Shown: positions 713 through 64,000 of the stretch, one piece after another
How positions within the stretch are numbered: the stretch's first letter is position 1
Layout of the letters: every line of letters begins with the position of its first letter
IMG/VR virus record: IMGVR_UViG_3300045988_015843
DNA: 64,000 bases
Strand: one strand, 5' to 3'
From: a virus
Position numbers and translations under genes: made by a program
The notes under the pieces: generated by a model
Database searches by the model: none
What the model saw: the letters and a program-made list of their open reading frames with translations, nothing else
What the model was told of the DNA's origin: nothing

Positions 713-1189
713 TCAGGATCTGTTGCTGTTGATTTTAGCCTAGACGTGCGCTACATATTTTGTGCACTCTTTTGTTTCTGGTCCGTGTTCTCCTTGTGTG
801 ACATAGTGATATGATTGATTCTATTTAAACTCGTTGTATTTTCTATATGCTTTGCTTCGTATGTATCTATCACTATCTCGATGTATGTGTTTTAACATAG
901 ACTCTCCTGTAACGCATCCTGAGACTCCTAGGTTGCAAATATTGTCTAAAAAAGATAAAATTCCATCTTCTCCAAACTATTTTTTTAATATTCCATATGT
1001 CTCTGTTGCTTGTACAACATAAGGATTGTGTTTATCGTACATTGGATCAACACCAGCTATATACGAAATATTCATAGGAATCTTGTGTATATAGAAATAT
1101 TTGCATGTATCTGTTACAGGAACTGATTTCTACTACATAGATAAGAAATCCGCATAATACAAAATAGCACTTAATTCAAACTTATTCAT
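713..1189 (-). CDS. Hypothetical protein, 158 aa, recoded with 5 in-frame TAG including a tandem TAG-TAG. The N-terminal LYYADF motif weakly resembles DUF4065/Panacea-type proteins.
   Basis: I checked plus-strand triplets in phase with 1187-1189 (CAT = ATG) one by one. CTA (= TAG) occurs at 740, 821, 977, 1130 and 1133. There is no TTA or TCA until TCA at 713-715 (= TGA stop). A run of 159 codons without TAA/TGA in AT-rich DNA is very unlikely by chance. The family assignment is weak. Confidence 0.6.
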
Positions 1190-1194
1190 GTTAT

Positions 1195-1386
1195 CTAATA
1201 TAATCTAATTAGTCTCATGAGTCTATGTAGGGACGTAAGAAGTAATATTATATAGTCTTACTTTCCTAAGGAGACTCATGTTATATTATATATAGTCTTA
1301 CTTATTATCATGAGACTCATGTATATATTATTAGTCTTACTATTCTACTTAGACTCATGTTATTATATTAGCTAATATAATCTAAT
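1195..1386. repeat. Iteron-like repeat array in the divergent intergenic region
   Basis: There are three tandem ~40-bp units, each TAGTCTTACT-N8/9-(G/T)AGACTCATGT. AGTCTTAC occurs at 1254, 1294 and 1333; AGACTCATGT at 1272, 1313 and 1351. Each unit holds the inverted pair AGTCT/AGACT. A near-palindrome AGTCTCATGAGTCT lies at 1211-1224. The whole array is bracketed by a 15-bp direct repeat CTAATATAATCTAAT (1195-1209 and 1372-1386). Confidence 0.8.
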
Positions 1387-1498
1387 ATAGTTTATATATA
1401 ATATAATATTCCCCCGAAGCTCTCGTGGCTGTAACGTATTAACTAAGCGTTTTGGTTTCACAAGCTATGAAAAAATTTATAAAAAAATAAATTTTTAA

Positions 1499-1506: not shown

Positions 1507-1564
1507 CAACCAAAATGCGCACTTCATACGTTACTGCCCCAGTAATTTAAAACAACAGATTGCT

Positions 1565-1969
1565 ATGACAAAGAAATTAGAAGTGATTGAACCGTTCTTC
1601 GGACTTGAACTTGGTGATGTTATGAATCTCTCTGATGACGAAAAGTCTTATGTTGCAGAGTATAATTCTGCATACAAGGAGAATGACGATGATGATTCTT
1701 CTGTAAAGGCTACCTATTCGTCCAAGTGCTCTATCTCTGTCGATTATGCAAAAGAGCTTATTGACGAGGGCATGCTTAAGGAGCTCATTGATAAATCAGA
1801 GCCGTTTATAAATGTGTTTGATGAGATCGATTCATTGATTGAGAAGTATACGTATGACCTGAACAAGGTTGATACACAGGATATGCCTGAGTGTATGAAG
1901 GTCGAACAACGTACAGTGATGCTTAATCTCATCAAAGTTCTTAACTATTTAAAGGGTCTTAAGAAGTAA
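1565..1969 (+). CDS. Hypothetical acidic protein (134 aa), early block
   Basis: Intact ORF ending in TAA with no in-frame TAG. It is the first gene after the divergent intergenic region. Confidence 0.6.
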   Translation: MTKKLEVIEPFFGLELGDVMNLSDDEKSYVAEYNSAYKENDDDDSSVKATYSSKCSISVDYAKELIDEGMLKELIDKSEPFINVFDEIDSLIEKYTYDLNKVDTQDMPECMKVEQRTVMLNLIKVLNYLKGLKK

Positions 1970-2385
1970 TGCAAGAGAAGATTAATCAGAAACCTTTAGC
2001 TGAGGATGTAAGTAATAAGATCAAATATGAGTTCTTTGACAGCTTTTTAGTAAAGCCGCTTACACCAGTAAAGGTCAAGAAGGAATTCAGTACACCGATT
2101 GCGACAGATAAGCCTAAGGCTGATAAGAACGGAATCGAGGCAACTGATTATGATAAAGTAAAGAAAGAAGTTAAAGAGGTTGATTCAGACTATTTAACAG
2201 GTATTGTACTTAAGGTTCCATACAGATATACTAAATGGATGGGTAATGAGAAGAGTTATGATCTTCCTCCGATACATGTTGGAGATACGATTTTCTATAA
2301 AGCCAGACACTTTGAGTACTTCGATCTTGTTAAAGACTCTCATCTAGTACGACAATTTGACATTATCGGAAAGGTCCATGATTGA
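1969..2385 (+). CDS. Hypothetical protein, possibly a GroES/gp31-like co-chaperonin fold
   Basis: Intact ORF. The pattern FLVKPL..VKVKKE ... TGIVL ... HVGDTIFY ... DIIGKV follows the GroES layout (IKPL..RV.VK / GGIVL / VGD.V.F / DILA). This is motif-level resemblance only. Confidence 0.35.
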   Translation: MQEKINQKPLAEDVSNKIKYEFFDSFLVKPLTPVKVKKEFSTPIATDKPKADKNGIEATDYDKVKKEVKEVDSDYLTGIVLKVPYRYTKWMGNEKSYDLPPIHVGDTIFYKARHFEYFDLVKDSHLVRQFDIIGKVHD

Positions 2386-2587
2386 TGTTAATAGTTTGAG
2401 CAATCAAATATCTAAAGAACTCAATATTGATAAAAACATTGTCAATGATGTTATACACCAGGTATTTGATTGTACAGCAACGATTATGAAAGACCCGAAT
2501 GATCAAAGAGATATATTGTTTGCTAAGTTATTTAAATTTAAATTAAAACCAAGATTTAAACATGAAAACGATTGCAGCGACGTATAA
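2378..2587 (+). CDS. Hypothetical small protein (69 aa from ATG 2378)
   Basis: Taken from the track ORF 2357..2587. ATG 2378 forms an ATGATTGA overlap with the stop of the upstream gene. No TAG. Confidence 0.45.
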   Translation: MIDVNSLSNQISKELNIDKNIVNDVIHQVFDCTATIMKDPNDQRDILFAKLFKFKLKPRFKHENDCSDV

Positions 2588-2891
2588 TTCAGATGTACTT
2601 ATTGTCGATACAGAAACCGCTAATATCGAACCGCTTGATGTACAAAGGAATGCGTGCAACAGAGTATACATGGCTCCTGAAGATATGCATTTCAAGTTCA
2701 TAGATCGCGACAGGAGTGTTGAAGAGTTCGATGTTAAAGCTGGCGATATTATACTTGCGTTTTGGGATACAGATTTTCCGCACAAGTATATAAAGATAAC
2801 ATCTGACGAGTGGAAAGAAAACCTCGATAACTATAATAAACGAATGAAAGAACTTAAAACAATTAACGATGAAGTCAATGAAGCCTGTTAA
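2562..2891 (+). CDS. Hypothetical protein (109 aa)
   Basis: Intact ORF, TAA stop, no TAG. Confidence 0.5.
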   Translation: MKTIAATYNSDVLIVDTETANIEPLDVQRNACNRVYMAPEDMHFKFIDRDRSVEEFDVKAGDIILAFWDTDFPHKYIKITSDEWKENLDNYNKRMKELKTINDEVNEAC

Positions 2892-3231
2892 GAAATATGT
2901 GATCGTAGATCTTACAAACGTTGAGAGCCCCAGTGATGTATATGCAGCTTTTGTAGAGGCTAAGTGTGGTGTAGAGCCTATCACTAAAGAGGAGATGTTC
3001 AACTACGCTATGCACGTCACAGAGCTGATGAATTCAAACATCGTCAAGTCATGCGCTTATCTAGTAGATTATATTGATGCACTGATTGATACAATTGAGA
3101 GTGTTTATGATAATGATGATTCTGATGACGCTGAGAATGCCGTAAAGAAGCGAGAGGGTGAGGAGAATGAGGTTGAGAAGAAGCCTAATATCTTCAAGCG
3201 TTTCTGGAACTGGATTACACGTAAGAAATAA
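2869..3231 (+). CDS. Hypothetical acidic protein (120 aa)
   Basis: Intact ORF, TAA stop, no TAG. Confidence 0.5.
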   Translation: MKSMKPVKKYVIVDLTNVESPSDVYAAFVEAKCGVEPITKEEMFNYAMHVTELMNSNIVKSCAYLVDYIDALIDTIESVYDNDDSDDAENAVKKREGEENEVEKKPNIFKRFWNWITRKK

Positions 3232-3278
3232 ATAGTTGGTTACTAAAAACTATCTGCAGTGACACACAACACTGCAAT

Positions 3279-3370
3279 GCGGGAGTAGCTTATGAGGTAG
3301 AGCAGTGTGAAGTCTGGAATAATATCAGATGAGATCCTCATGGAAGCAGGTTCGAGTCCTGCCCCTGCGC
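3279..3370 (+). tRNA. Atypical tRNA-like gene with a type II (long variable arm) layout; anticodon not assignable by eye
   Basis: Elements that fit a type II tRNA:
- T arm GCAGG-TTCGAGT-CCTGC (3346-3362)
- D arm GCTT-ATGAGGTA-GAGC (3288-3303)
- acceptor 5' TGCGGGA(G) against 3' CCCTGCG, 6 of 7 pairs
- hairpin TCTGG-AATAATA-TCAGA (3313-3329)
- variable-arm hairpin TGAG-ATC-CTCA (3330-3340)
Problems: 8 extra nt (3305-3312) lie between the D and anticodon arms, and the 7-nt loop lacks U33. Read conventionally the anticodon would be UAA (Leu). It could be a degenerate or unusual tRNA. Confidence 0.45.
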
Positions 3371-3383
3371 AAAAAACTACAAT

Positions 3384-3602
3384 ATGCGGCTAAAAGAATC
3401 TAATAGACCAAAACATTTGTTGTACGCTATTCCTGCAGCATTTGTTGGTACGATATTATTCAGTACAGGTCTAGCGTTTGGAATGGAGTTTAAAGACAAA
3501 CAATGGGGAGGTAAGTTCGATTGGCTTGATATAGCTGCTACAGAAATAGGTGGTTTAATCGGACAAGCACTTCAAATAGGAGTGATTTCATTATTTGTTT
3601 AA
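3384..3602 (+). CDS. Small membrane protein (72 aa, two hydrophobic segments)
   Basis: Intact ORF. Hydrophobic stretches: LLYAIPAAFVGTILFSTGLAF and IGGLIGQALQIGVISLFV. Confidence 0.5.
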   Translation: MRLKESNRPKHLLYAIPAAFVGTILFSTGLAFGMEFKDKQWGGKFDWLDIAATEIGGLIGQALQIGVISLFV

Positions 3603-3606
3603 TTAA

Positions 3607-3631
3607 TTAACCTCCTTAAGAAAGAGGTTAA
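3607..3631 (+). terminator. Perfect 8-bp hairpin between the membrane-protein gene and the tRNA 5' half
   Basis: TTAACCTC-CTTAAGAAA-GAGGTTAA. There is no downstream T-run, so it may be a processing or attenuating structure rather than a terminator. Confidence 0.3.
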
Positions 3632-3669
3632 CACTGCCCTATGGTGTAGCGATTAGCACAAGAGGCTCT

Positions 3670-4648
3670 TTTATCCAATGAATAATTGAATATATGGAAA
3701 ATAAAATATATAAGCTCTCAGACGAACAGTTTGTTGAGCTGCTCAAGAATAGTTCGACTATATCTGAAGTGTTATTTAAATTAGGTTATAGTGTAAAGGG
3801 TAATTCTTGGGGGTTTGCTAAAGTTAAACAAAGAATGTCTGATTTAAATTTAGACGGAAGTATATTTAAAGGTAAATCTCCAATTACGAAATATGGTACT
3901 TTACACAAAGTAAATGCTTCAGATATATTAAAACCTAATTGTAAACATGCTCGTTCTGTTTTAAGACGATATGTCATAAAAAATAATCTAATCCCATATC
4001 GATGTGCGATTTGCGGATGTGTTGAATGGCAAGGTCGTACATTAAGCTTAGAGCTTGATCATATAAACGGAATCAACAACGATAATCGTATAGAAAATCT
4101 ACGATTTCTATGTCCGAATTGTCATAGTCAGACAACTACTTATGGTAGTAGAAATCAACAAAGAAATGATTCTGAATATGAAATTACAGACGATCTTAGA
4201 AATTTAGTTGAAGCTGAGTATCAAAAACGTCGTAATATAAAACAAGTTTCTTCAGCACTTGGTGTTCGTAGACATGTTGTAAACAGGATTGTTAGCGAAA
4301 GCGGTTTGAAAAAATCTAATCAAAAATATGTGATTCGATACGATGAGAACTGGAACGAAATTGCACGATATGGTTCTTTGATAGAGACTGCAAAGCAACT
4401 TATTCTCAACAACGAAGTTAAAACAAAACGAATTAAAACATGTACTCGTACGATCATGTACAATAAGGATAATTTTTGGTTGAACAGTCATTGGAAAATA
4501 TTGGATGGTAGCGGGATAATAAATAATCCGCTATTAGAATCTTCTCTAATTGACTCGGAAGACAATGTTGACGAGGCGCAAGCGAAAGCAGCGTGACAGA
4601 CTGAACGAGAAGACTGGTCTTAGGACTGGATGCAACAGTCGATTTATG
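3670..4648 (+). mobile_element. 979-nt intervening sequence in the anticodon loop of the suppressor tRNA, carrying an HNH homing-endonuclease ORF (group I intron-like; ribozyme core not verified)
   Basis: The 5' exon ends in U (3669) and the intervening sequence ends in G (4648), as at group I splice sites. No other junction giving a 7-nt loop satisfies both rules. The 3' flank has a GNRA-capped hairpin (AAGC-GAAA-GC, about 4578-4590) and ACUG...CAGU pairings (4600-03 / 4636-39). Only 24 nt precede the ORF and 52 nt follow it, so any catalytic core would have to overlap the coding sequence. Confidence 0.4.
3694..4596 (+). CDS. HNH homing endonuclease (300 aa)
   Basis: The motif CAICGC...LELDHINGINNDNRIENLRFLCPNCHSQ matches H-N-H with flanking Cys pairs. 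TGA stop, no in-frame TAG. It lies entirely inside the tRNA intervening sequence. Confidence 0.9.
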   Translation: MENKIYKLSDEQFVELLKNSSTISEVLFKLGYSVKGNSWGFAKVKQRMSDLNLDGSIFKGKSPITKYGTLHKVNASDILKPNCKHARSVLRRYVIKNNLIPYRCAICGCVEWQGRTLSLELDHINGINNDNRIENLRFLCPNCHSQTTTYGSRNQQRNDSEYEITDDLRNLVEAEYQKRRNIKQVSSALGVRRHVVNRIVSESGLKKSNQKYVIRYDENWNEIARYGSLIETAKQLILNNEVKTKRIKTCTRTIMYNKDNFWLNSHWKILDGSGIINNPLLESSLIDSEDNVDEAQAKAA

Positions 4649-4700
4649 AACCCTCCTGGTCCGGGTTTGACTCCTGGTAGGGCTACTAAAATATAATAAG

Positions 4701-5264
4701 ATGGAAATTAAATTCAAGAAACTTTCTCATAAGGCTGTAATGCCTTCAAAAGCACATAAGACAGATGCTGGTTTTGATCTAACTACTACGGGTATAACGA
4801 CAGAGTTGAATGAGTGTGGTCAGTTGGTGATCGTATATCATACAGATCTTGCATTAGAGATTCCTGAAGGATACTTTGCTCTGGTGATGCCAAGATCATC
4901 TATTGCAAAGAAGTCATTACGTCTTACGAATAGTTGTGGTGTGATCGATTCAGGCTATCGTGGTGAAATACTTGGTAAATTTATCGCAACTACAGATGTT
5001 GTTCCTGCCGTATACAAGGTTGATGATAAATTTGCTCAGCTGGTGATCTTGCCTGTTCCTGATGTAGAGTTTGTTGAGTCTGATAATTTTTCAGAATCTG
5101 ATCGAGCTGATGGTGGTTACGGATCTTCTGATAAGGCACAGACTGCTGTAGACTCTGATACTAATACATCTGGCAACGACGAAAATATTTCAGTGCGAAG
5201 TGCACGACCGACAGATTGGCAGTCTGCAGTAACTGAGGACAATCAGTGCGAGTCTGCAGCATAA
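4701..5264 (+). CDS. dut: dUTP diphosphatase (dUTPase) with an acidic/Ser-rich C-terminal extension
   Basis: Motifs: AGFDL, PRSSIAKK, GVIDSGYRGEI. Intact ORF with no TAG. Confidence 0.85.
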   Translation: MEIKFKKLSHKAVMPSKAHKTDAGFDLTTTGITTELNECGQLVIVYHTDLALEIPEGYFALVMPRSSIAKKSLRLTNSCGVIDSGYRGEILGKFIATTDVVPAVYKVDDKFAQLVILPVPDVEFVESDNFSESDRADGGYGSSDKAQTAVDSDTNTSGNDENISVRSARPTDWQSAVTEDNQCESAA

Positions 5265-5292
5265 TAACACATGACAACCATCAAGGTTGTTT

Positions 5293-5367
5293 GGAAGTTT
5301 AGCTCAGTTGGTTTAGAGCGTCTGCCTTACAAGCAGAAGGTCGATGGTTCGAATCCACCAACTTCCA
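5293..5367 (+). tRNA. tRNA-Val (anticodon UAC)
   Basis: Cloverleaf elements:
- acceptor GGAAGTT/AACTTCC, 7 of 7
- D arm GCTC-AGTTGGTTTA-GAGC
- anticodon arm TCTGC-CTTACAA-GCAGA
- variable AGGTC
- T arm GATGG-TTCGAAT-CCACC, one mismatch
- discriminator A
Total length 75 nt. Confidence 0.85.
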
Positions 5368-5403
5368 CCTTCATTTTTTTCATACTGACTTTTTGAATTT
5401 GCG

Positions 5404-5427
5404 TTACTCCAACTTCGGTTGGAGTAA
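5404..5427 (+). terminator. Perfect 10-bp hairpin with a UUCG tetraloop at the boundary between the TAG-free early island and the recoded late genes
   Basis: TTACTCCAAC-TTCG-GTTGGAGTAA. A T7 run precedes it at 5374-5380; no T-run follows. Confidence 0.35.
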
Positions 5428-5451
5428 TTGCGTATATACGTATATATAAAT

Positions 5452-5943
5452 ATGATTTATTCAAAGCTTAGACGTACAAATATACAGAATGCGGCAGGTA
5501 CTCCTGTCACACCTCGTATTTTACATATGCAAGAGCCTGATAAATTGAAAATCGTGGATAGCTCTCAGTTTCAATTCGGAGATGTTCTCGATGCAAAATC
5601 TACAATGGAACTTATCGGAAAGGGCGGTGGTTCTGGTGTAGATATGAAAATGCTCTAGGCATATGTGAACAAAATGACGATTGAGTATGATCCAGCAACT
5701 AAATCTGTAAAACTAATCTCTCCAGATGGGATTGTTATTGGATCTGCTGATATGTCATCTATTGCAACAGAGGGTGGTGTTGCAATTGAATCTGGTTCTT
5801 ACGATAAGGGTAGTGATAAACAGAACGTGCTGCGTCTGAAAATGACTGACGGATCTTCTAAGGAGATCTTGATGAACGATGTTATGGACTCTAATGACGA
5901 TTATTCTATCGACACAAAAGACATCGCATCAATCTTAAATTAA
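5452..5943 (+). CDS. Hypothetical protein (163 aa), 1 in-frame TAG (5656)
   Basis: Track ORFs 5428..5658 and 5665..5943 share frame 1 and are separated only by TAG. The start is taken at ATG 5452. Confidence 0.5.
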
Positions 5944-6708: not shown

Positions 6709-6719
6709 TAAAATAATAA

Positions 6720-8030: not shown

Positions 8031-8033
8031 TAT

Positions 8034-8541: not shown

Positions 8542-9030
8542 ATGGAAACTCTTGATAAGATATTTAAAGATTATGGATACGATAAACAAACATCGGTAAT
8601 TCATAAAGCGATCACAAACATATCTGAATATTTACAGAAGGTTTTGGATAAAGACCAGTATTGTAAAGTGATCAAAGATACATATTGTACGTTTGTTGGT
8701 GGACATTACAATGAACCGTTTGCTGATGATCAGGTATCTAAGATGTATTACGAAAAAGATGGGTCTAAATACACAGGACCATTTTTGAACAAGAATCTCG
8801 TACTAAATAAGTATAAAGAGATACGTGGCGTAATACCTGATTATAATGAGTGGGATTATTATGTAACTGTACAGATGATATATTCAGATAACTATAATCT
8901 CATACATGAGTGGTTTCCGAACATATCAGAAGATGAGTTCAATCAAAAGATTTATCAACTTGCTACCAACTGGTTGAACGATAAGGATAACCCGTTTGGT
9001 AATAGTAAAACATGGTGTTATTTTAACTAA
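8542..9030 (+). CDS. Hypothetical protein (162 aa)
   Basis: Track ORF 8521..9030 trimmed to the first ATG. No TAG. Confidence 0.5.
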   Translation: METLDKIFKDYGYDKQTSVIHKAITNISEYLQKVLDKDQYCKVIKDTYCTFVGGHYNEPFADDQVSKMYYEKDGSKYTGPFLNKNLVLNKYKEIRGVIPDYNEWDYYVTVQMIYSDNYNLIHEWFPNISEDEFNQKIYQLATNWLNDKDNPFGNSKTWCYFN

Positions 9031-9038
9031 TATAAATA

Positions 9039-10592
9039 ATGAAATTTTTAGATCAATCAGGTTTAGTAATTGTTCAATCTTGGATCAACAATAGCTTTGC
9101 AAAAGTTGATCAAGCGTTCGGTACTATAAGTTATGCAGGAAACATATCCGGTATAACTGTTAGTCAAGTCAGTACAACAACAAACGGTAGTCCTTCAACT
9201 GTTTATTACGACACAACTGGTGGACAATTTGTATTGAAAGCTGGTAACAACGTATATTACAACAACTGGCCGAACAAATATGTATGGGTTGTTCCTGGCA
9301 TTAATGAGCCTTGGGGTTGTGTAATCTATAAAGATCTGAGCTTAAATAAGCTATATAAATATCTTCCCGAGGAAGGTAGTATGACAGCGTGTGACGTAAC
9401 AGATTATCCTGCAATGCGTCTTCGTGATCTGCTTGCTGATATTGAGATGTATATTGCTCAGAAAAGTATATATGCTCCGTCACAGCATACTCACTCTATT
9501 GCAAATGTTACTGGACTTCAGGCCAAGCTTGACACTATAAACAAGGGTTTGACCGTACTTGGACTTGATCAATGGGGTGCTGTTAAAGTAGATGGTGTTC
9601 TGACCAATTCTATTAATGCTGCACAAGGTGGTGTTGGAAATCCGACCGATATATATATTGCACAGTCTATCTCAAGTCCGTCTGGTACGATATCTGGAAT
9701 TGTTGGTAGGATTGGATCTGCATATTATACGACATGGAGTGGTACTAATGTACCAACCAATTTGTATATGAAGACAAATGGTAGTCCTTATTACAGCAAG
9801 TATTATTATACTATGGGTTCTAATGGTCTGCCAAACGCGGTATACAGATGGAACGGTCAGAAGTTTACGATCGATGAGGATTATTCAGATCATTCGATTT
9901 CTGATGGATTCGGCAAAGACCTTGAGGATGCAATACAGCCGGCATTGGATTATATTGATACAGTATCTGCTGAGTCGGTATCCAGAACAGATGCTGTTAC
10001 TCATAGTGCTATTAGCAGTACATCTAGCACAGTAAGATTAGCTTATGTACTTTCGTCAGCAAGTACACATGGTAATATTAAGAATGCTAGTGCTTCAGAG
10101 CTCGGCCTTGTCAATGGTGTAAGTTCATCAGGTACAGGTAATGTTGTAACAAGTATGTCAAAAGCTGCTAACTCAAGTAGTATTACATGGGAACGTAATT
10201 GGGTTGAGCCGTGGACAGCTAATGCTTATCATAAACAGGCATCTGCAACAGCTCGTATTTCAGCTACTGAAGGTGAGTTCTCGGTCCTTGACTTCAGATC
10301 AGGTTCAGGCATGTATCTTGGTTTTGCATCTCCGTATAGTTTGACTAACGGCATGAACCATCATTGGAGAGGTTTGATTATGAAGAAAGCTAATCAGCCT
10401 ATTAATATTGCAAAGCCTTCAATGCTCAAAACAGATTCTGTAATCCTGTGTAACCTTCCACAAACTCAGATTGTTAGTGGTACGAATTTCTATTTTGACG
10501 CATATACTACGACAAATACATCATCACTATCACATGATACTTTGGTACTAATACTGTATCCGGTTACAAACGTATTAGAGTTTTCAGCTTAA
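9039..10592 (+). CDS. Tail fibre / receptor-binding-like protein (517 aa), TAG-free
   Basis: Intact ORF. The N-terminus MKFLDQSGLVIVQSW parallels ORF 6720. Ser/Thr/Gly-rich. Confidence 0.5.
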   Translation: MKFLDQSGLVIVQSWINNSFAKVDQAFGTISYAGNISGITVSQVSTTTNGSPSTVYYDTTGGQFVLKAGNNVYYNNWPNKYVWVVPGINEPWGCVIYKDLSLNKLYKYLPEEGSMTACDVTDYPAMRLRDLLADIEMYIAQKSIYAPSQHTHSIANVTGLQAKLDTINKGLTVLGLDQWGAVKVDGVLTNSINAAQGGVGNPTDIYIAQSISSPSGTISGIVGRIGSAYYTTWSGTNVPTNLYMKTNGSPYYSKYYYTMGSNGLPNAVYRWNGQKFTIDEDYSDHSISDGFGKDLEDAIQPALDYIDTVSAESVSRTDAVTHSAISSTSSTVRLAYVLSSASTHGNIKNASASELGLVNGVSSSGTGNVVTSMSKAANSSSITWERNWVEPWTANAYHKQASATARISATEGEFSVLDFRSGSGMYLGFASPYSLTNGMNHHWRGLIMKKANQPINIAKPSMLKTDSVILCNLPQTQIVSGTNFYFDAYTTTNTSSLSHDTLVLILYPVTNVLEFSA

Positions 10593-10605
10593 TCAATAAC
10601 CAGCC

Positions 10606-17969: not shown

Positions 17970-18169
17970 ATAAGGATTATATAAAACCTTCTGAACTTCT
18001 ACAAAGACAACGACAAACAGGTGAGTCTTATTGGGACATGGTTGGAAAACCGTTGACTAATAAGACTCAGTCTGATCGTCAGTTAGATTCAGAGCTTGCT
18101 AAGATAGAATATCTAGCTAACAAGTGGAAGGAAGAAGCTGAAGCAGATTTGTAGGACTATGATTATTAA
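17966..18169 (+). CDS. Small hypothetical protein (67 aa), 1 in-frame TAG
   Basis: ATGA overlap with the portal stop. It reads through TAG 18152 to TAA 18167. Confidence 0.4.
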
Positions 18170-18872: not shown

Positions 18873-18912
18873 ACAGTTATATTGAACTGAAATCAATAAC
18901 ATAAATATATTT

Positions 18913-20073: not shown

Positions 20074-20098
20074 TGAGAAAGATTATTAATAAAATTTT

Positions 20099-21622: not shown

Positions 21623-21682
21623 GAAATAACAAGCCTCGATCTCGGCTTGATTTCAACCTAACGGTTGAAATAACAAGCCTCG
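21623..21682 (+). repeat. 16-bp direct repeat GAAATAACAAGCCTCG (x2) with an embedded hairpin, downstream of the capsid gene
   Basis: Copies lie at 21623-21638 and 21667-21682. The perfect hairpin TTTCAACC-TAAC-GGTTGAAA at 21651-21670 overlaps the second copy. Confidence 0.7.
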
Positions 21683-21710
21683 GGGCTCGTAATAAATGTA
21701 TATATAAAAA

Positions 21711-21746
21711 ACCGCTCGCATCTAGATAAGATGCTCGCGGTTTCTT
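21711..21746 (+). terminator. Probable terminator after the capsid gene
   Basis: Stem CCGC(TC)GCATC / GATGC(TC)GCGG with a 7-nt loop, followed by TTTCTT. Confidence 0.5.
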
Positions 21747-21786
21747 ATATATAATTTATTATAGGTGACAACACTAATTTAATATT

Positions 21787-30669: not shown

Positions 30670-30691
30670 TACAAATACTCAATAGGTAAAC

Positions 30692-54300: not shown

Positions 54301-57300
54301 GAAGGATACGATGATTTGTTTAACAATGGTGAAACTGGTGCATTGTTTAACAGAGCGTCTCTTTTAAAGCTTAGAGATGAAAGCTATGTAGGTGTTAAGA
54401 CTGAAAATGCTATCAATGCTACAAAACATATTATTGAAGGTCAGTTCTTCAGTGGTTCACATTAGTTTATCAAAGCTATTGAAAATTTAAGCAAGCTTGT
54501 TGGTAATGAACATCGTTACGAAACTGTTAATTTTGTCGAAGCAGCTACAAAAGCTATTAGCGCATCGATCAAATCAGAATACTTTAATTATTATGTCAAT
54601 AAGCTATTTGGTGATTCTACATACGTAAGAGATCTTGTTAATGGGAGTTCGGAGCAGCATAACGTAAGATATCATTATGATAAAAAGGCCCCTTATATCG
54701 AGGTTGATGAAGATATGATTTATCCATTGAGAACGTATATTGGTAAACCGATAAATATTTCATGGAAGACCAAAAGCGGTTCTCAAATGAAAGCATATCC
54801 GAATGTTATCGTTGCTATTAGTGGTAATAAAGTATATCTTCAGAAGGAGATATAGTTCAATAGTAAGGGTAGAAGATCACCTCTTACTGTTGATGCCAAT
54901 ATAGATGTACAATTTACTCAAGGTAATAATACAATATATGACCGCATAGGAGCTCTTAAGACTCTTATTGAGAACAACAGTGCTCTTGCAGATCTTAAAG
55001 GTAATATATTGTTGCGTGATATAATATTAGCTGCAACATAGAAGTATACTCCATCTCATAAACGCATTGCTGGAGAAGCATCTGATACGTATGATGATCT
55101 TAAGTTCATTAAGCTTGAAACATTCTTTGAAGATAATGGAGATAAGACTGATCAGTATATTAGAGCATGGGATTCATTGCTGAGATATACTAATGATAAT
55201 GAAAGATTGTAGAATGCCATTCGTAAATTAGCAAACGATCTTGTTATATACGCATTTATAACATCTGGCGATACTAAAGGATCCACTAAATTATTCCAGT
55301 ATGTACCTGATTCCTGGAGAAACGGTGAGTTTAATCCTGAAGGTGTGACATCATATGCTGAATTTATTCGTAATAAACTTGACGAGTTAAATGGTTATGG
55401 CGAAACTAAGATAGATCTTGATGATGTTATATTGAATAACTGGCAAAATGATCAGTTTGTACCAAGATATCGTGTGGATGATAAGGCTGAATAGCAAAAG
55501 CTGACACCTATATATACTGACGGACGTAATACATATGGTTATCCTGTAGTAATTCAGGGTATGAACATTGAAAAACCTGCGGATAAAAACCATATGCCTA
55601 AGGTAAATGTTGTAATAGATCCTACAAAGGCTCCTCAATATATTAAGATAACCCGTGATTATAAACATCGTAATTCACAAAGACAGTATTCTATATACAA
55701 GTTCCACTCTGTTGCTCAAACTGCTGATGGAATAAGGTATCCTATATACGTTAAAGTTGAACCAAAAGGTATTACTATAAAATCTTCTGGTGGTACGTAT
55801 ATGGTGACAGAATATGGTCGTTCAGACAGACTAGATAAGGCTGAGAATAGCACTATACCTGAACTGTTTGAGTTGTTATACACAGCTCAAAACTTCCAAG
55901 ATCAGTTGAGAGGTATGCCTAAGAGTGATCTAAAGGATTCTAATATATTATAGGACCTTAGACGATTTGCTGAGTTGGACATGGCTGAAAAGATGGCCAT
56001 CAGTCGTAGATCATATAGTGCTAATATGGACATTGCACAAACTCAATCTGTTCAATTTAATGATACAACTTAGAATGTGAATGGTGTTACTAACACTGCT
56101 GTAAATCCGCTTACTATATCTGATAAAACTGAAGCATTTGGTGTAACTGTAGATCCTAAGCTTAAATAGAATTACAAACAATGGTTAGTAGATCATCCAA
56201 ATGGTATTGTTGCGTATAGGATTAATTATAATAACTTTAATACTGCTGAAAATGTAAATAAGAATATTATAGGAAATCCATTTGATTGGTAGAAATATGG
56301 TCAAGAAAAATCACTATAGATGTTCTACGAATGGCTTACTACAGGGACTAATCATGGCGAAGTTTTAGCTACCGATGAATATCGTAATGCTATAATCAAC
56401 AAGTTGCTAAGTATAGACAAGCCTGAAATTTTATATTACAAAGAACTTGGTCATCCTAGTCATGCAACAGTTCTTGGATATCTTATTGAACACAAAGAGC
56501 TGTTACAACCTCAATCTCAAGCAAGTACGTCTGTTACCAGTAGTGCTACTTAGACAAATGATAGACCTGTTAATATATATTTTGGCAATGGTCAAAATGA
56601 TGAAAATATCGAATTAAGTAATTTTGCAATAAGGCCGTTTTCGTTTACGCCAAAAGATTTTTATTTCGGAGATGATGCTCGCGAACACCAGTTTTATAGT
56701 GTAGAATAGGCGTTTTAGTATTATAAAATAATGGTGTTGGCGTCTATGTCCGGCTCTTTAAATTATTCGATACCTACAGGTGCTCAAGAGGCTGCTAGAA
56801 AAAGTATAAGTGCAAATAGAAACATTTTATTAAAAAGAGCACGAGAGATATTAAATGCTTCAACTTCTGCGCATGCGAGATATTTAGGTAGACAGCCTCT
56901 TGGATTGTAGGATGTATCTTCTCAATTTGGAACTATTGCCTCTGCCAAAGATATTGAAAAGTCTATATTTAAAGTTTGGGATGAGAGAAGTTCAAAAATA
57001 ATGAAGGCTCTTATTAAAGCTTCTTTTGAACAGAATCCTCAAGCAGCTCAAAGACTTCTCGACACTGGTAACGCTACACTCACGCATAACCAAGATAAAT
57101 CTAAGTGGAAGATTGAATTCCCAAGATTGTTAATGGAGGTTCGTGATGAGTTACGTAAATCTCAAAGTAATAGTGTTGATCAAACAAGTAGTATCGTAAA
57201 TATAACCAATGATCCTCAAGAAATTATTAGTCTAAACAACGTTGTCATAAGACCATTTGTGCATACGTTCGAAGACGGTAGTAAAAAGGAATTTAAATCT

Positions 57301-60300
57301 ATAGCACAAGCCTTTCAATATATAAAAGCAACGTATGCAGATCCTGTTGTTAACGAAAATATAATTAGACAGATAGAACAGACTACAGATCCTTCTGATT
57401 TAATAGACCTTGGTGAATTTATCAAACAACTTGATGTTAAGTCTTGGGATAATGATTCTTATAATATAATGACACAATTAACCAAAGAATCATTTGAACA
57501 AAATCCATCTGCTGCTAAGATTTTGACTAATGAATTACGTAAAATCGGTGTTGACACTTCAAGTAAACCTCAGAGTAATAAATCTTATAACAGTATAACA
57601 ATAAGCACAGGTTATACAAAAGGTGAACCTGAGGATAATCCGAATACAGATTATGTATTTACTGAGAACGCAGAGGCTGCATTAGCTGTATCAAGTCGTG
57701 GACACGGTCTGGATAAGAGTGGAATATTTGACCAAGAAGAATTCCCGTTCAAAGGCAGTGTTAAGTTGAACGTATCTGATGTACATCAAACTAACAGTGC
57801 TGCTGTACGTACTGACGCCAAAGGAAACATTACACAAAATGCATACGGTATTGTTGTTAAAAAATATCAACATGATGCGAATGGTAAATTTGTAGCACAA
57901 CCAGGATGTTTTGAAGATACAGATGAAGATTTTAAAAAATTCAAATCTATCAATAATATCGTCTTTAAAGACATAGAGCAATCTAAAAACACAAACATAG
58001 TATTTCCGTCACAGATCGCTCTTGGGCGAGCTGCGTTACCATTGCAATTTGCGGGCTGGTTACACAATTAGCTTGAGCAAAGATTTGGGTTGGAGACTAA
58101 TATAGAACGATCTAAAAAAGCTTCTTACGAAGGTTATGGTTTACGTGTAATTGGAGTTGGTACAAAAACTAACACATCTGTTGATACTAACAGCCAATCT
58201 AGTACTGAAGATTCTAAACCAAAGACTAATGAAGACAGTAAGTCTGTACAACAGATTAAATTAACAGCTGGTCAAGAAACTGCTAAGAAAGCCATATTGA
58301 ACTTTATAAAGACTGCAGATGCTTCCAAAGGAGAGTATTTCACTCTAACAGGTAAAGCTGGTACAGGTAAGACTACGTTAATACAAGAGGTTATTAGAGA
58401 GATTGCTAAAGACAATCCTTATCAGAGATTTGTTGTATCTGCATTAGCTCATAAAGCAGTACAAGTCATATATGGTAAGACTAAAAAGTCTTCAAAGTTT
58501 GTTTCTGCTTCAACCGTAGCATCGTTACTTGGTATGAAATTAGATCAAGAAACTGGAAAATTCAAGCAAGTTAAAAGTGGTAAATCCAAGATTAAACCCG
58601 GTAGTATATTGTTTGTAGATGAAGCGTCTATGTTGAATGAACAGAATATAGAATGTTTAATAGATGCTGCAATAAGTAGCGATTCTAAAGTCATATTCTT
58701 AGGTGATCCTGGACAACTTCCTCCAATACGAACAGGCGATCTCGTTAAGTACGGAACTGATTCGTTATCTCCGGTATTTAAGACCCAAAAGGATGAATAC
58801 TCAGCAGGTCTTACAGAAAGAATACGACAAGGAGAAGGTAGTCCGATATTGGATTATGCAGATACGTTCTGGAACTATAGTACAACAGAAGGTTAGACTG
58901 ATCGACGTGTTAATGACGAAAATATGTCTCGTGTTGAAAACGCTCAAGGATCTATTGAGTTTATAAACGAACAACAGGTTGATAAGATAGTACCGTTATT
59001 TAAACAAGCTGTTGAAACAAACAATCCTTCATTAGTTAAGATTGTAGCATATCATAATAAAGCTGTTAAAGAGTGGAACCAAGATATTCGTCGCAGTGTG
59101 TATGGTGATGAATATAGTCCGAACCCGTTACCTGGAGATATTCTGATGATGACAGATACATACAATGACCCAACGTCTGATGTTGCAAAACCGTTATTGT
59201 TTAATAGTGAAGATATATCTGTAATTAGTACAGGACCTATTCGTACAGTAGATGGTATTCAAATCATGGAGACTACTATAAAAGACGCTCGTGGCAAAAT
59301 GGTCACAGTGCCTTTAATAATACCTACTGCACAGAATATAGCTGCGTTTACTGCTCAGAAAAATAAGTTATTTAGTTATGCTAAGTCGCTAAAATCCAAG
59401 AATTATAGAGCATATCTTAATGCATTAGATACGGCTTGGAATTATGGAACAGAATGGGCTCATGTTGAATATGGTTATGCTATAACAAGCCATAAATCAC
59501 AAGGTTCTACATACGATGTATCTATTGTAGATTCTGCAGACATCAACAGTAATGAATTTATGTCAGACATCAGTAAAGCTCGTAGTATCTATACAGCTAT
59601 AACAAGAGCTCGTAACTCAGCTGTTATCTTACGTGACAAGCTTGGTACTCTCGATGTTGATCTGAAACAGCTTAATGACCGTATAAACGGTTATAAAGAT
59701 GGTTCTGTAACACCTCCTGCTCAGATCACACCTGATACTGTAGATAATGTAGGTAATACATATAAAGAGAATATCGAAACATTGGAGTCTGATAAAACAA
59801 TATTATCTAATGAAGAGATATTGAAGCTTAGACCATTTACTGGTAATGATAAAGCTCCTCGTATAGCTGTTGCGTCCGAACATACTGATCCTGTATTTTT
59901 TGCTAAGCATATAAAAGACTTCTTCGATGGTAAAACATCTGTAAAACGAAAGTTCGGTGATCCAATCACGGCCAAAGACATCGATGCTTTATATATTATA
60001 ACAAAGCATGATGGCATTCCTTTAAGAACCATTCTTTCTATAAAAATACCTAAGATAATACATTTCAGTATAACAGGCATGGGTGGTACTAAATATGAAC
60101 CTGGTGTTATGCCATATAACGAATTACTTGATCGTATTGGTGATTATATAAAGCAAGGTCTCGATCCATCTATGGTAACAGTTCGTATTGATCCTATTAT
60201 ACCTGGTGTAACACCTAGACATGTTATTGAAAATATTATAAAACGAGCGTCTTCTATGGGTATTAAGAATATAAGATTTAGTGTTATGGACTTTTACTCA

Positions 60301-61137
60301 ACAACAGCTCAGTTTACAGAAGCTGCTGGTTTTGATTATTCTAAATATTACATACCGATGAAGGGTTATGATGGTAAATAGCTTATGACATTGATATCTA
60401 GGGACGGAAGATCGTTTTATGACTCTAGTGATAAAAATTCTCCGCTCAATAGTGCTAGAGGTAGGAGAGTTGGCAACAGCATTGTTGTTACTGTGAGTTA
60501 TGGAGCTGAGACGAAGATGTATGTTCGTGGCAAAAGTGGTAAAGTTTTGACGAAGACTATAAATACGTCTGAAATGACCGATGATGCCATTAAGAGTAAT
60601 ACTGGGTGGAATGCTTTAACTGCAGATCAAATCATACACGACTAGGTAGCAAACAGAGTAGCTGCTGGTGTATTATTACAACCGATGTATGAAAGACACG
60701 CTCGAAAAGAGGTAATAACCAACATTGCAAAAATAGTTAAAGAATATGGAGATAAATATGGTGTTACGTTGTCGACATGTGCTGAACCAGATATTCTTCC
60801 ATCTGGAATATCTCATGAGGGTTGTTTGAGCGTTTAGGCTATAAATAGAATACTTGGTACGCATATTGACGATAAAGGTACGGATAATAACAATATTAAA
60901 TCAAGACCTCTTTGTTCATGTTATGGTGGTAAGACGGATATTCTTGCATATGATAAACGTTGTGCTTCAAGCTGCACATACTGCTATGCGCATCACAATA
61001 GTAACGCTGCAGCACTTTTATATAACAAAGATGGATCTTTGAGGAACATTCCTCTCACAACTACTCGTAAAGATACTGAGAAATTTGATGATACAGATAT
61101 TGATGATAAATTCATATATCATTGTAAAGGTAAATAA
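39340..61137 (+). CDS. Giant polyvalent virion protein (7265 aa) that includes the crAss-type virion RNA polymerase region
   Basis: There are 23 track fragments: 39340, 40759, 41509, 42928, 43840, 44461, 44854, 45340, 46537, 47737, 50212, 51295, 51502, 51874, 52525, 53659, 54223, 55561, 56320, 57001, 58090, 58924 and 60385. All are in frame 1. I read every gap codon by codon. Only TAG interrupts the frame (about 52 times). The first TAA/TGA in frame is TAA at 61135. Confidence 0.8.
44461..45990 (+). other. PD-(D/E)XK nuclease domain within the giant ORF
   Basis: GEPDLIAIDQDGGIHMIDIKTS at 45295-45360 gives the D ... D-x-K motif. A downstream QYSNQQTAY supplies the Q..Y motif, and RRVHATIP lies upstream. 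Confidence 0.6.
46537..55953 (+). other. Virion RNA polymerase-like region of the giant ORF (catalytic DFDID at 53221-53235)
   Basis: ITGSDFDIDKLYL is a DxDxD metal-binding motif of the type found in the crAss-like virion RNAP. Region size and position after the cargo genes fit. Domain limits are approximate. Confidence 0.55.
47989..48003 (+). other. HExxH zinc-metallopeptidase motif (HEAFH) within the giant ORF
   Basis: The context is NGVEYHEAFHRIFELIIPEH. This is a motif-only call. Confidence 0.4.
56170..56553 (+). other. DUF4326-like segment
   Basis: IGNPFDW(Q)KYGQEKSL(Q)MFYEWL ... ILYYKELGHPSHATVLGYLI resembles the GNPF ... W ... CH..VL pattern. Low certainty. Confidence 0.3.
56554..57180 (+). 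other. NADAR (YbiA/DUF1768) domain 1
   Basis: Pattern: LSNFAIRPF ... FYSVE(Q)AF(Q)YYK ... GRQPLG ... W ... SFEQNPQAAQRLLDTGNATLTHN... Confidence 0.65.
57220..57540 (+). other. NADAR domain 2 (shorter paralog)
   Basis: Pattern: VVIRPF ... FKSIAQAFQYIKA ... SWDNDSYNIMTQLTKESFEQNPSAAKIL. Confidence 0.55.
58240..59650 (+). other. SF1 (RecD/Dda-like) helicase domain
   Basis: Motifs:
- Walker A: TGKAGTGKTT (58351-58377)
- Walker B: ILFVDEASML
- LGDPGQLPPI
- YAITSHKSQGSTYD
- YTAITRARNSAVIL. Confidence 0.8.
59830..61040 (+). other. DUF1848-like domain at the C-terminus of the giant ORF
   Basis: Pattern: IAVASEHTDPVFFAKH ... ITGMGGTKYEPGV ... VTVRIDPIIPG ... C-terminal Cys cluster CSCYGGKTDILAYDKRCASSCTYCYAHHN. 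Confidence 0.5.
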
Positions 61138-61139
61138 TT

Positions 61140-64000
61140 ATGATAATTGCATGTCCCAATTTAGCAAATCCTGAAGTAAAACAGGAATTTAATGAGCTCG
61201 TATCCGTATTAGGAGAGAAAGCTGCTTATGCAGCATGGGCTCTAAATGATGGGAACATGATAGATCGAGCTCCTAACGGAGCTCCTTCTATCTTGTTTCA
61301 ATCATTACTATCTAAAAATAAAAATGATCGTACAGCAGCCATACGTGAAAAGGCTGAAATATACAAGAAATCGTTCAATTCTTGGTTTACAAAGCTAGGT
61401 GATGAAGCTAAAGAATTATTTACCGACGCTAATGGAGAACCATTGACAGAAGTATTGGATAAGAATTTTAGTTCTATTTACGATATTCTTGTTGGTAAAC
61501 AAGATCCTGTAGTTGATTTAAACTCAGACACTGAATATGAAATAAATGCTCGTAGAGATACAAATTCTAAGCTAATAAACACTATTGCTAGTACACATAG
61601 ACAACTCAAACAGATACCTAAGAAAGTAAACACAACACGTTACGGTGGAGATAATATATATTATCAACTACGTAAAGCTTTACCTAAGGAGATTGTTGAA
61701 GATATAGTTAAGTTCTATTATGAAGAAAAAGATCGTGATTCGTTCTTAGATAGAGTAGAATTCTATATCAATAACGAGCTTAAGCAATCTGTTATGCCAA
61801 AAGTTATAGCTGCGGCTAAAGAAAGACAACTTGAATTATCAACACATTATGATGCTCGTCAAATAACTGCATAGTTGTTTGGAGCACTTAAGAGTGGTAG
61901 AATAACAGGTGATGTTGAAGCAGACGAGGCATTCATTGGTCATTATCAAACGCAGTTAGCTCAACAATTATTTCCAGCTATTTATAAAAAAGGTTGGTCT
62001 AAATAGAGGTATGGTTATTATGCTAAGTAGTTTTCTTAGATATCTAAAAAGATATATGCTGACGTTATATCGTAGAATAATGCTCGCATGGGCAATCTTA
62101 ATCATATATACAAGCTTGAAGCCGTTGTTGCAGGGTTAAAAAACTATAAGTTTAAACAACACCTTATTGAATATATAACAGCTGTTGATCGTACAACTCA
62201 ACGTAACAAACCTAGTGATGGTAAAAAACATCGTGTTTTTGGATACGGTTTCACAATCGATGGTTTTGCTGCTAAAAAAGATTTTCAATTATCACCACTA
62301 TATCTTACTTTTGGAAATAAACGAAAACGATCTCTTAAAGAAGTTCTTTCTGATATAAAACAACGTACTGGTATTTATGATAATGTTATAGACGCTATCT
62401 TGAGCAAGATGCGTGGCGATACAACTGTATAGTTGACCGTTACTGAGCACCGTCATGCACTCGGTGTTACAATATCATCTAACTCTAATCCGTCTATGTC
62501 GATTATACATCTTTCGACTGAAAACATTGATGAATTTGAACTTATGCATACGATTATACATGAAGCAATTCATGTTGTAACGAATCAGTATTTCCACGAT
62601 AACCCTCAAGCAACTGAGTTATTTAATAAATATGCTAAATATTTATAGATGATAGATAGTAATTGGTACGGCAACACCAATGCAAAAGAGATGATGGCGG
62701 AGTTCTTCTCAAATGCTGATTATAGAGAGTGGCTGAAGACGGTGCCTGCACCAAAAGTTAAAATATCAATGTTTGAGAAGATTGTAGATTTTATTGTACG
62801 TATATTTACAGGTGATTCTAAAAATGCTTACGAACAAATAAAGCCTGCATTCGAATACATTTTTAATGAATCATTAGCTGATATAACTGTTAGTGAACTT
62901 ACTGGTTATGACAAAGCTGTTAAATCAGATTATCTAAAATCAGTACAGTCTATATCAGAACAAGTTCAAGAGATGTATGACGATATCCAGTCAAAGAAAC
63001 GTGAATATTTAGATAATGTTAAAGCTCAACATAAAAACAATACAGGCGTTGCTTATACTCCGGATTAGATTAATCGTATAACAGTACAATATGATCAGAA
63101 TCAATTATCTAAGTAGATATCTACATATCAAAAGACATTAGCTCAGCTACACGGTTTAATCTTTAACGGTACGTACTATGAGTCAACAGGGCACTCTTTA
63201 ATGAACGGTATTGTAGAGTATGTTGTCAATGCATTAGATCAATCAACGTTCTCAGCATATCGTAATTAGAATATTGATAGATACTCTGATTTAACACCAG
63301 ATCATATGTCTAATGTTACTGAAATCATAAGAAATGCTTTTGTTGATGGTGACATACAAACTCTTGACAAACAATTAGCGTTGACATACGTTAGAATGTT
63401 CTGGCAAACTCCATTGATACAATAGGGTTTACAACTGCTCGATAATGGAAGTAAGAACCCCAATCAACTTGAGACAGAACTCGTTAATCTTATAACAGAA
63501 GAGTCTCTTAAAGATCGTATCTAGAATAAAAGTTTACGTGATTATATCAAAGACTTTTGGAATAATCTTAAAAAGATCGTATCTAAAGTGTTTGATCCTA
63601 AAAACGTTAGCCAACAACAGCGTGATGAGATATTTAAAACTATCAAAGCTGCTCAATTATACGATCAAGAATTAAAGGAGGATTCTTCTATAACTCCGAT
63701 ATATGATAGAGCTAATGGTGATTTTACATCATCTTTGTTGTTATCTGAACAAGATAAATAGATTCTTCCAGAAGTTATAAAACACGGTAAAACTAGATTA
63801 TCTGCTCTACGAGCAAAACGTGTTCGTAATGAACGTAAAATGGTTGAAATACGTAACCAAATAGAGTAGTTTGAAGAGTTAAATGGTGAGAGTATTGTAG
63901 ATACGTATAATACTGTTATAGAATGTTTAGTTGATGCTGAAAACGACTTCAGATAGACGTTGAACTATATGGATTAGTTGACATCTAGAGATATTAGTTC
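61140..64000 (+). CDS. Second giant ORF (more than 953 codons; runs off the right edge) with an HExxH metallopeptidase motif; about 16 in-frame TAG
   Basis: ATG 61140 lies 3 nt after the previous TAA. Track ORFs 61140, 62088, 62433 and 62649 share frame 0, and the rest of the window stays open apart from TAG. HEAIH lies at 62559-62573 (MHTIIHEAIHVVT). Confidence 0.75.

Follow-up and report, generated by a model that had tools for sequence, protein, structure and literature searches.

The 64,000-nucleotide stretch of viral DNA held as IMG/VR record IMGVR_UViG_3300045988_015843, referred to here as the window (the whole stretch that was analysed), is assigned by its gene content to a gut crAss-like phage (Crassvirales, Suoliviridae / delta group), of which it comprises most of the late-gene arm. 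Near its left end lie the two pieces of a tRNA gene with anticodon CUA, separated by an insert of about 1 kb that carries an HNH homing endonuclease gene and ends in a conserved RNA core. Downstream are genes for packaging, capsid, tail and giant virion proteins, many of which contain in-frame TAG codons (Table 1). A joint explanation for these features is considered highly probable, namely that UAG is read as glutamine (Gln) in the late arm and that its decoder is the phage's own intron-split tRNA(CUA), which would have to be spliced before it could act. An earlier note on the same DNA had already proposed the Gln reading; the suppressor tRNA, which that note missed, extends it and lies inside the window.

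The split tRNA(CUA) gene

By virtue of being split by a putative 1-kb intron, the suppressor gene is missed by standard tRNA finders. With ARAGORN and Rfam, only a tRNA-Val(UAC) and a weak tRNA-like element were detected in the window and no suppressor. The intron mode of ARAGORN likewise did not find the split tRNA(CUA) in the window, presumably owing to a break that lies away from the canonical 37/38 position. The gene becomes apparent by comparison with cr7_1 (NC_055895; Suoliviridae, Oafivirinae, Burzaovirus coli; PMC7886860), where an uninterrupted tRNA(CUA), labelled tRNA-Gln in RefSeq, adjoins the dUTPase gene. The syntenic site in the window holds a very similar tRNA 5' half, then the HNH gene, with the 3' half 979 nucleotides (nt) later. 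Removing 3670-4648 yields a canonical cloverleaf with anticodon CUA when ARAGORN is run on the joined exons. The break falls between anticodon bases 35 and 36 (CU/A, the slash marking the break), the predicted junction of exon 1 with exon 2 is GGCUCU/AACCC (...AAGAGGCUCU/AACCCUCC...), and the mature tRNA(CUA) would be 72 nt long. Exon 1 aligns with the uninterrupted tRNA(CUA) of both cr7_1 and L008, a relative with a large terminase (TerL) ~98% identical to that of the window and a tRNA(CUA) at 2277-2351.

Homologues of the HNH protein (54-98% identity) were found in 23 IMG/VR loci, and all 23 have the same CU/A break, with exon 1 ending in CUCU, an insert of 979-1003 nt ending in G, and exon 2 starting with AA. 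At least 23 IMG/VR phage contigs besides the window therefore have this split gene, which ARAGORN fails to report in any of them; with default settings on 188 phage loci, the program reports a tRNA(CUA) only in the two that are intron-less. An exact-pattern scan of IMG/VR for the core motif returned 70 stretches on contigs of 4.5 to 282 kb. As brute-force joining of exons in these 70 loci gives many spurious anticodons, only joins of normal length that break after the second anticodon base were retained. Among the core-motif loci that have both flanks and a rebuilt tRNA of normal length, the anticodon is always CUA.

Pairing across the gap was examined in 21 distinct spliced sequences. Compensatory changes between the exons occur at five of the seven acceptor-stem pairs and at all four anticodon-stem pairs, and 97.9% of the cells in the cross-exon helices are paired as opposed to 46-58% in slid controls. 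Since an intron-less allele exists, the split form recurs in 23 loci and covariation spans the gap, a working gene, not a wreck, is supported.

Conservation is far higher over the terminal 150-185 nt of the insert than over the coding sequence that precedes them. For this core, helices P2, P3, P4, P6, P7 and P8 were proposed from an alignment (A1) of 21 sequences, with 99.5% of cells paired and compensatory changes on both sides at 15 of the 36 pairs; P3, a long-range helix in a pseudoknot with P7, covaries at six of its seven pairs. The covariation score of the core was reached by none of 500 shuffles, and slid controls were paired at 33-47%. The elements run in the order P3 strand, AAU, a small P4-P6, ACAGACUrAA, P3 return strand, P8 hairpin, a 7-nt J8/7 and AGUC. 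Both order and motifs agree with the consensus of the Rfam group I model (RF00028), as printed for a control match in L008. In all 24 sequences of the HNH-bearing family, the window included, the exon base before the insert is U and the last base of the insert is G. Because of the element order, this U and this G, the insert points to a group-I-type intron that would be self-splicing. Its marks of mobility are the HNH gene that it carries and the intron-less alleles in L008 and cr7_1. An apparent second tRNA at 4616-4685 (Rfam, 14 bits) was rejected, the match being the P8/P7 region together with exon 2.

Further observations concern the locus itself. In L008 a free-standing GIY-YIG endonuclease gene (2365-3144) directly follows the intact tRNA(CUA), at the place where the window has the HNH intron, and the locus therefore appears to attract homing endonucleases. 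The D-arm and anticodon stem of the tRNA(CUA) differ greatly between the window and L008 despite the near identity of their TerL proteins. Endonuclease-driven exchange at the tRNA(CUA) locus is suggested.

Table 1. Features of the window, with strand, in-frame TAG codons and supporting matches
Feature	Position	Strand	TAG codons	Match or remark
ORF (open reading frame), 188 amino acids (aa)	713-1279	-	7	head of opposite-strand gene block; homologue of cr7_1 gp71
tRNA-like element	3279-3369			Rfam tRNA 27.6 bits (threshold 29 bits)
tRNA(CUA) exon 1, tRNA positions 1-35	3635-3669	+		ends with anticodon C34 U35
Intervening sequence in the anticodon, 979 nt	3670-4648	+
HNH homing endonuclease ORF, 300 aa	3694-4596	+	0	phrog_10822, E 2.6e-44
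Predicted structured RNA core of the intron (P2, P3, P4, P6, P7, P8)	4499-4648	+		alignment A1
tRNA(CUA) exon 2, A36 to discriminator A73	4649-4685	+
tRNA-Val(UAC), ordinary phage tRNA	5293-5369	+		Rfam 72.3 bits
Large terminase (TerL), 688 aa	12367-14433	+	7	stop TAA; phrog_6681, E 7.6e-138
Portal, 1,177 aa	14436-17969	+	13	stop TGA; intein at 15888-16934
Putative glucosaminidase-type lysis enzyme	18159-18872	+	4	positional homologues in L005 and L008 carry PF01832
Crassvirus major capsid protein, 507 aa	20099-21622	+	0	PF23898, E 1.5e-211
Two paralogous genes	22558-23229, 23226-23960	+
Membrane-anchored protein, 229 aa	27922-28611	+	7	4 CAA/CAG; ends TAG-TAA
Three large virion/tail genes	30662-35329, 35326-37272, 37269-39323	+	13, 3, 7
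Giant ORF, 7,265 codons	39340-61137	+	52	stop TAA
ORF running past the window end, at least 953 codons	61140-64000	+	16

TAG as a sense codon

The gene models comprise 34 plus-strand genes, 33 of them complete, with only TAA and TGA taken as stops. Their 20,051 codons contain 142 in-frame TAG and neither TAA nor TGA, while the two other frames of the same genes hold 1,782 TAA and 1,556 TGA. The 33 complete genes end in TAA (22) or TGA (11) and never in TAG. The earlier note had held that TAG is a sense codon, that TAA and TGA are stops, and that merged genes end at TAA or TGA, and all of this is borne out. Its further remark that start and stop often overlap as ATGA applies to just 3 of 33 junctions. 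Its counts of seven TAG in terL and 52 in the giant ORF are exact, and its "about 14" for the portal gene becomes 13 when counted from the ATG.

Coding density by greedy ORF tiling, a comparison that the earlier note had proposed, rises from 78.6% (90 genes) under code 11 to 97.1% (39 genes) when TAG is sense; making TGA or TAA sense instead gives 81% (91 genes) and 84% (95 genes), respectively. The longest ORF with TAG as sense has 7,266 codons, and in 100 dinucleotide shuffles the longest averages 194 and never exceeds 280. Protein lengths also come to fit those of homologues: TerL has 688 aa (684-691 in homologues), the portal without its intein has 828 aa, as has the intein-less portal of relative L005, and the capsid protein has 507 aa both in the window and in L005. 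A code 11 annotation of the window is wrong, with 90 gene fragments in place of ~39 genes.

Use of TAG is uneven. Overall it makes up ~15% of Gln-type codons (142/938). Genes for packaging, tail, lysis-type and giant virion proteins contain it frequently, and its plus-strand bias is strongest in the membrane-anchored protein gene. By contrast, four blocks have none: genes 1565-5264 (with the tRNA region, the HNH gene and the dUTPase gene), 8542-11847, 20099-22539 (the capsid gene and its neighbour) and 24723-25775. Together these blocks hold 89 CAA/CAG and no TAG, for which chance gives ~5e-7 by the arithmetic of this analysis. The recoding is thus not uniform over 713-64000, the range given in the earlier note, and the starting coordinate, 713, belongs to a minus-strand ORF that contains seven TAG.

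With regard to recoding confined to late genes, the window offers TAG-free blocks, a TAG-rich ORF on the opposite strand, and a replication arm that lies beyond its ends. In cr7_1, which is complete, the late arm is full of in-frame TAG, the replication arm is nearly without, and no gene ends in TAG. This late-arm pattern was described by Yutin 2021 (PMC7886860) and Borges 2021 (bioRxiv 10.1101/2021.08.26.457843), the latter giving a lysis amidase and a spanin as the most TAG-biased families. The minus-strand ORF 713-1279 (7 TAG, ~3 CAA/CAG) is a strongly recoded gene outside the late module, and its cr7_1 homologue, gp71, has six TAG in an otherwise TAG-free replication arm. A PHROGs search of the TAG-richest small genes returned no annotation. 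The gene at 27922-28611 ends with a TAG directly followed by TAA (28606-28611), so its protein end would be essentially the same with or without suppression of TAG.

As for the amino acid, the paired sites on which the earlier note based Gln are all present. The first copy of a duplicated NADAR domain in the giant ORF reads GTA GAA TAG GCG TTT TAG TAT TAT AAA (56701-56727) and the second ATA GCA CAA GCC TTT CAA TAT ATA AAA (57301-57327). Both stretches are in the frame of ORF 39337-61137, and the TAGs at 56707 and 56716 align with CAA at 57307 and 57316. In the paralogous genes, LTYIK-TAG-PDKF (23056) aligns with LTYIK-CAG-PNRF (23778), and TAG occurs inside poly-Q runs at 14884 and 17520. TerL proteins from databases also show Q at TAG positions; they were not counted as independent because gene calling in close relatives seems to have taken TAG as Gln already. 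In view of this possible circularity, the codon comparison was made on the raw DNA of relatives.

For this comparison, window proteins were given X at each TAG and aligned to every stop-free frame in 116 related loci, and the codon opposite each window codon was recorded. In high-scoring segment pairs of at least 95% identity, window TAGs face TAG 81 times, CAG 13 times, CAA four times and seven other codons once each; at 80-95% identity they face TAG 75 times, Gln 43 times, and Lys and Glu 10 times each. Summed at 80% identity and above, the partner is TAG in 156 cases and CAG/CAA in 60, with no other single amino acid above 11. Each of the 20 amino acids has its own substitution profile in these alignments, and when the non-TAG partners were scored against these profiles, Gln ranked first in all five identity bins, with a total log-likelihood of -1486 compared with -1798 for Glu and -1820 for Lys. 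Tabulating homologue residues at TAG, as the earlier note had advised, therefore favors its choice of Gln. In the reverse direction, it is the Gln codons of the window that most often stand opposite TAG in relatives. Collectively the evidence supports the decoding of UAG as glutamine, with UAA and UGA still terminating.

Proposed maturation and charging of the suppressor

No tRNA-Gln genes were found among the phage loci examined, and bacterial genomes were therefore used for the isotype comparison. A scan of these genomes with the tRNA 5'-half motif returned 120 tRNAs. The majority (98) are tRNA-Gln with anticodon UUG or CUG, mostly from Bacteroidales, which share U1, length and discriminator A with the phage tRNA(CUA); another 21, on contigs of Saccharibacteria and Paceibacterota, are tRNA-His. 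In 21 of 21 sequences of the phage tRNA(CUA), bases 1 and 72 form U-G or U-A or are mismatched. Judged by U1, the weak 1-72 pair, U35 and discriminator A, the tRNA(CUA) has the build of a Bacteroidales tRNA-Gln. In E. coli, a weak 1-72 pair and U35 are identity elements for glutaminyl-tRNA synthetase, and the classical amber suppressor supE is a tRNA-Gln with anticodon CUA. Given this build and these precedents, it is natural to expect that the host glutaminyl-tRNA synthetase would charge tRNA(CUA) with Gln.

In the proposed mechanism, the phage would encode its own amber suppressor as a gene in two pieces, and the primary transcript would be spliced, most likely by itself, before any suppressor exists. 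The mature tRNA(CUA) would then be charged with Gln by the host enzyme, and TAG-bearing late genes could be completed only once enough of it accumulates. A gating of late genes of this kind has already been proposed for recoded phages. Since TAG is absent from the intron ORF, the genes neighboring the tRNA and the capsid gene while frequent in late genes, completion of the TAG-bearing genes would need the suppressor. The demand could be considerable: with 52 UAGs in one ORF, per-codon read-through would have to exceed ~98.7% for half of the ribosomes to finish (0.5^(1/52) ~0.987), which would imply that host release factor 1 is heavily out-competed or disabled.

Several points weigh against this account. 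The Rfam group I model (RF00028) gives no match on 3100-5500, 3620-4700 or 4300-4700, even with E values up to 10, and the same model scores 41.8 bits on the positive control, the capsid-gene intron of L008 (Intron_gpI, E 5.5e-9). A canonical P1 with its U-G pair and guide is also elusive, and no convincing complement to CUCU/UUUAUCC was found. By eye, the candidates are a 3-bp pairing of UCU with GGA in the invariant UAUUGGAUG and a helix of UCCAAU with AUUGGA spanning the ORF; the partner element is invariant and so provides no covariation. In the group to which the window belongs, the HNH ORF continues across P2-P6 of the core, where translation could interfere with folding; in the group farther removed, its end lies just upstream of the core. 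A terminal G is required in group I introns. Inserts in one subclass of this intron family (L119, L135, L147, L148, L171, L179, L159) end in A instead, as ...UAAUA, ...UAACA or ...GCUA directly before exon 2, with the P7 sequence unchanged. The T-loop of the spliced tRNA (4666-4672) is UUUGACU, with an unusual U at position 56 in place of the near-universal C. Finally, splicing, Gln charging and timing are all deduced from sequence, and ~35 kb of the genome outside the window could hold another suppressor. On the T-arm, it may be added that it is more aberrant in relatives L011-L018 (GGCAGCA loop), whose tRNA ARAGORN rejects even with the insert removed.

Some of these points can be turned into alternatives. 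The insert may be removed by something other than canonical group I self-splicing, for instance by a protein-assisted or divergent ribozyme or by cleavage followed by an RNA ligase. This is fairly unlikely. The missing RF00028 match, the missing P1 and guide sequence, the subclass ending in A and the very small P4-P6 domain would all be in keeping with it, but the P3/P7 pseudoknot, P8, the J3/4 AAU, ACAGACUrAA and AGUC stand in group I consensus order, the flanking U and terminal G are constant in the HNH-bearing family, and group I introns in anticodon loops are well known from bacterial tRNA genes (PMC3984707). Quite improbable is the idea that the split tRNA is the dead relic of a homing-endonuclease insertion and that the suppressor is encoded by the host or outside the window. 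Yutin 2021 does consider host-encoded suppressors possible (PMC7886860), about one third of the genome lies beyond the window, Rfam finds no group I intron in the insert, and splicing is here a prediction from sequence. A relic, however, would hardly keep both tRNA halves in a perfect cloverleaf, compensatory changes at 9 of 11 cross-exon pairs across a 1-kb gap, and an intron core conserved with covariation down to 54% HNH identity. An amber suppressor would not be expected in a Bacteroidales host with the standard code. Furthermore, the complete relative cr7_1 has only one tRNA(CUA), and it is in the same position.

The remaining alternatives concern the codon itself. It is very improbable that TAG encodes another amino acid such as Glu, Lys, Tyr, Trp or pyrrolysine. 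GAG, AAG, TAT/TAC, TGG, TTG and TCG are each one mutation from TAG, K or E codons make up a minority of those aligned, and ARAGORN by default labels CUA tRNAs 'Pyl'. Against these points, Gln wins the likelihood comparison by wide margins in every identity bin, CAA, differing from TAG at two positions, stands opposite it almost as often as CAG does, the tRNA(CUA) resembles tRNA-Gln of Bacteroidales, and proteomics found Gln in related phages (PMC9523058). The notion that the TAGs are true stops, and the genes pseudogenes, assembly errors or products of rare read-through, has a negligible probability and draws support solely from reading the DNA in the standard code. It is refuted by the frame statistics, in which thousands of TAA and TGA in the other two frames face none in the coding frame, and by an ORF of 7,266 codons that no shuffle approaches; in addition, TAG positions are kept in independent assemblies from other samples and the merged proteins match full-length homologues. 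Decoding of late-arm UAG as Gln by a spliced tRNA(CUA) thus remains the preferred explanation.

Gene content, lineage and known systems

Near-identical contigs of 96-100 kb are present in ENA, Logan and IMG/VR, and the window is therefore taken to be about two thirds of the ~98-kb genome of a delta-group crAss-like phage. The hallmarks of Crassvirales are all found: the capsid and TerL matches of Table 1 and a P22_portal match. The nearest GenBank phages are cr130_1, cr7_1 and cr272_1, with TerL ~69% identical by tblastn. Since TerL is only that similar to cr7_1, the window would represent a separate genus-level lineage among GenBank phages.

The giant ORF is among the largest phage ORFs. A domain scan that covered the residues beyond the first 5,000 identified, in the C-terminal third, two NADAR domains (the copies being 600 nt apart), an SF1 helicase (RecD/Pif1-like) and DUF1848. 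In cr7_1 the matching region consists of two ORFs of 5,443 aa and 1,945 aa. Inteins and introns occur in core genes. The intein of the portal protein has 349 aa, comprises Hint and homing endonuclease parts, and contains one TAG. In several relatives a LAGLIDADG intein is found in TerL instead (1,063-aa TerL proteins P0002-P0014). The capsid gene, uninterrupted in the window, is split by an HNH_3-bearing intron in relatives L006, L007 and L008 (in L008 at 18867-21362). The AT-rich divergent intergenic region between the gene blocks (1286-1564) has the repeated motifs AGTCTTACT (twice), GAGACTCATG and TAGACTCATG and may be a divergent promoter or origin region. The tRNA-like element has an anticodon region of 31 nt where 11 is usual, and its extra hairpin covaries with that of L008 (UCUG with CAGA as against UCUGG with CCAGA). 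ARAGORN labels it variably, either with a 4-base anticodon or as a tRNA-Leu(GAG) with a 16-nt intron.

The TAG-to-Gln recoding of late genes in the window is not new, since it is published for the delta group (PMC7886860), found in RefSeq relatives and confirmed by peptides. The earlier note was right that some crAss-like phages are known to show the phenomenon, a statement that can be narrowed to the delta-group Suoliviridae; the RefSeq coding sequences of cr7_1 carry many in-frame TAGs. The recoding was generalised (bioRxiv 10.1101/2021.08.26.457843) and confirmed by proteomics in crAss-like phages by Peters 2022 (PMC9523058). Less well explained has been the decoder. Suppressor tRNAs are detected in only ~40% of TAG-recoded genomes, the rest being put down to undetectable tRNAs (bioRxiv 10.1101/2021.08.26.457843, PMC9523058), and undetected suppressors are left unexplained by Yutin 2021 (PMC7886860), Borges 2021 (bioRxiv 10.1101/2021.08.26.457843) and a 2025 paper (PMC12386605). 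In the full-text literature searched, no description of an intron-split suppressor in recoded phages was found. According to a review (PMC3984707), all phage introns known by 2014 were in protein genes.

In the window the intron hides the suppressor from ARAGORN, and from Rfam at its gathering score, and the same split architecture recurs in dozens of IMG/VR contigs. A broader proposal is offered tentatively, its likelihood being put slightly short of even. It holds that this phage, like many of its relatives in the gut, may depend for its code switch on a suppressor tRNA that exists only once spliced, that a mobile family of HNH-bearing group-I-type introns may have specialised on the CU/A site, that this could account for part of the 'missing' suppressors, and that it may add a maturation delay which helps to time the switch to code 15. 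If the tRNA is indeed spliced, surveys of suppressors should be redone with split-tRNA searches, and the timing of the code switch would become testable at one RNA processing step. The window would then also provide a rare example of a phage tRNA gene with a group-I-type intron, whose homing endonuclease targets an anticodon.

Comparison with known systems places these features in context. The only precedent found is a one-line note on the Vibrio N4-like phage pVa5, with a 'tRNA-Stop interrupted by a ~2.5 kb ORF-containing area' (PMC5746245). As in the window, a suppressor-type tRNA gene of a phage is interrupted by ORF-bearing DNA; pVa5, however, is one genome of another phage group, its insert is much larger, its tRNA serves no recoded genes, and neither a conserved RNA core nor comparative evidence is reported there. 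Closer in structure are the group I (IC3-type) introns in anticodon loops of bacterial tRNAs, such as cyanobacterial tRNA-Leu(UAA) and tRNA-fMet and Azoarcus tRNA-Ile (PMC3984707), one cyanobacterial tRNA-fMet intron also carrying an endonuclease (PMC3984707). They share with the window the anticodon-loop site, the U before the 5' splice site, the G at the end and a compact P3/P7 pseudoknot core. Unlike them, the window intron is in a phage and between positions 35 and 36 of a suppressor tRNA, most of its length is taken up by the HNH ORF, which runs into the core, it has no Rfam match, and its P1 is represented by candidates.

Delta phages of the cr7_1 type resemble the window in gene order, in their capsid, terminase and portal families, in giant virion ORFs, in the use of TAG as a sense codon in late-arm genes, in a tRNA(CUA) beside the dUTPase gene, and in having inteins and introns in core genes. 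They differ in the suppressor gene, which is uninterrupted in cr7_1 and split by the 979-nt HNH-bearing insert in the window. Code 15 phages in general (bioRxiv 10.1101/2021.08.26.457843, PMC9523058) likewise read TAG as Gln in structural and lysis genes and count a lysis-type enzyme and a small membrane protein among their most TAG-biased genes.

Turning to the textbook case, E. coli supE is also an amber suppressor derived from tRNA-Gln through a change at anticodon position 36 with U35 kept. While supE is a weak chromosomal suppressor that competes with release factor 1, the 149 TAGs in essential genes of the window phage would imply near-complete decoding.

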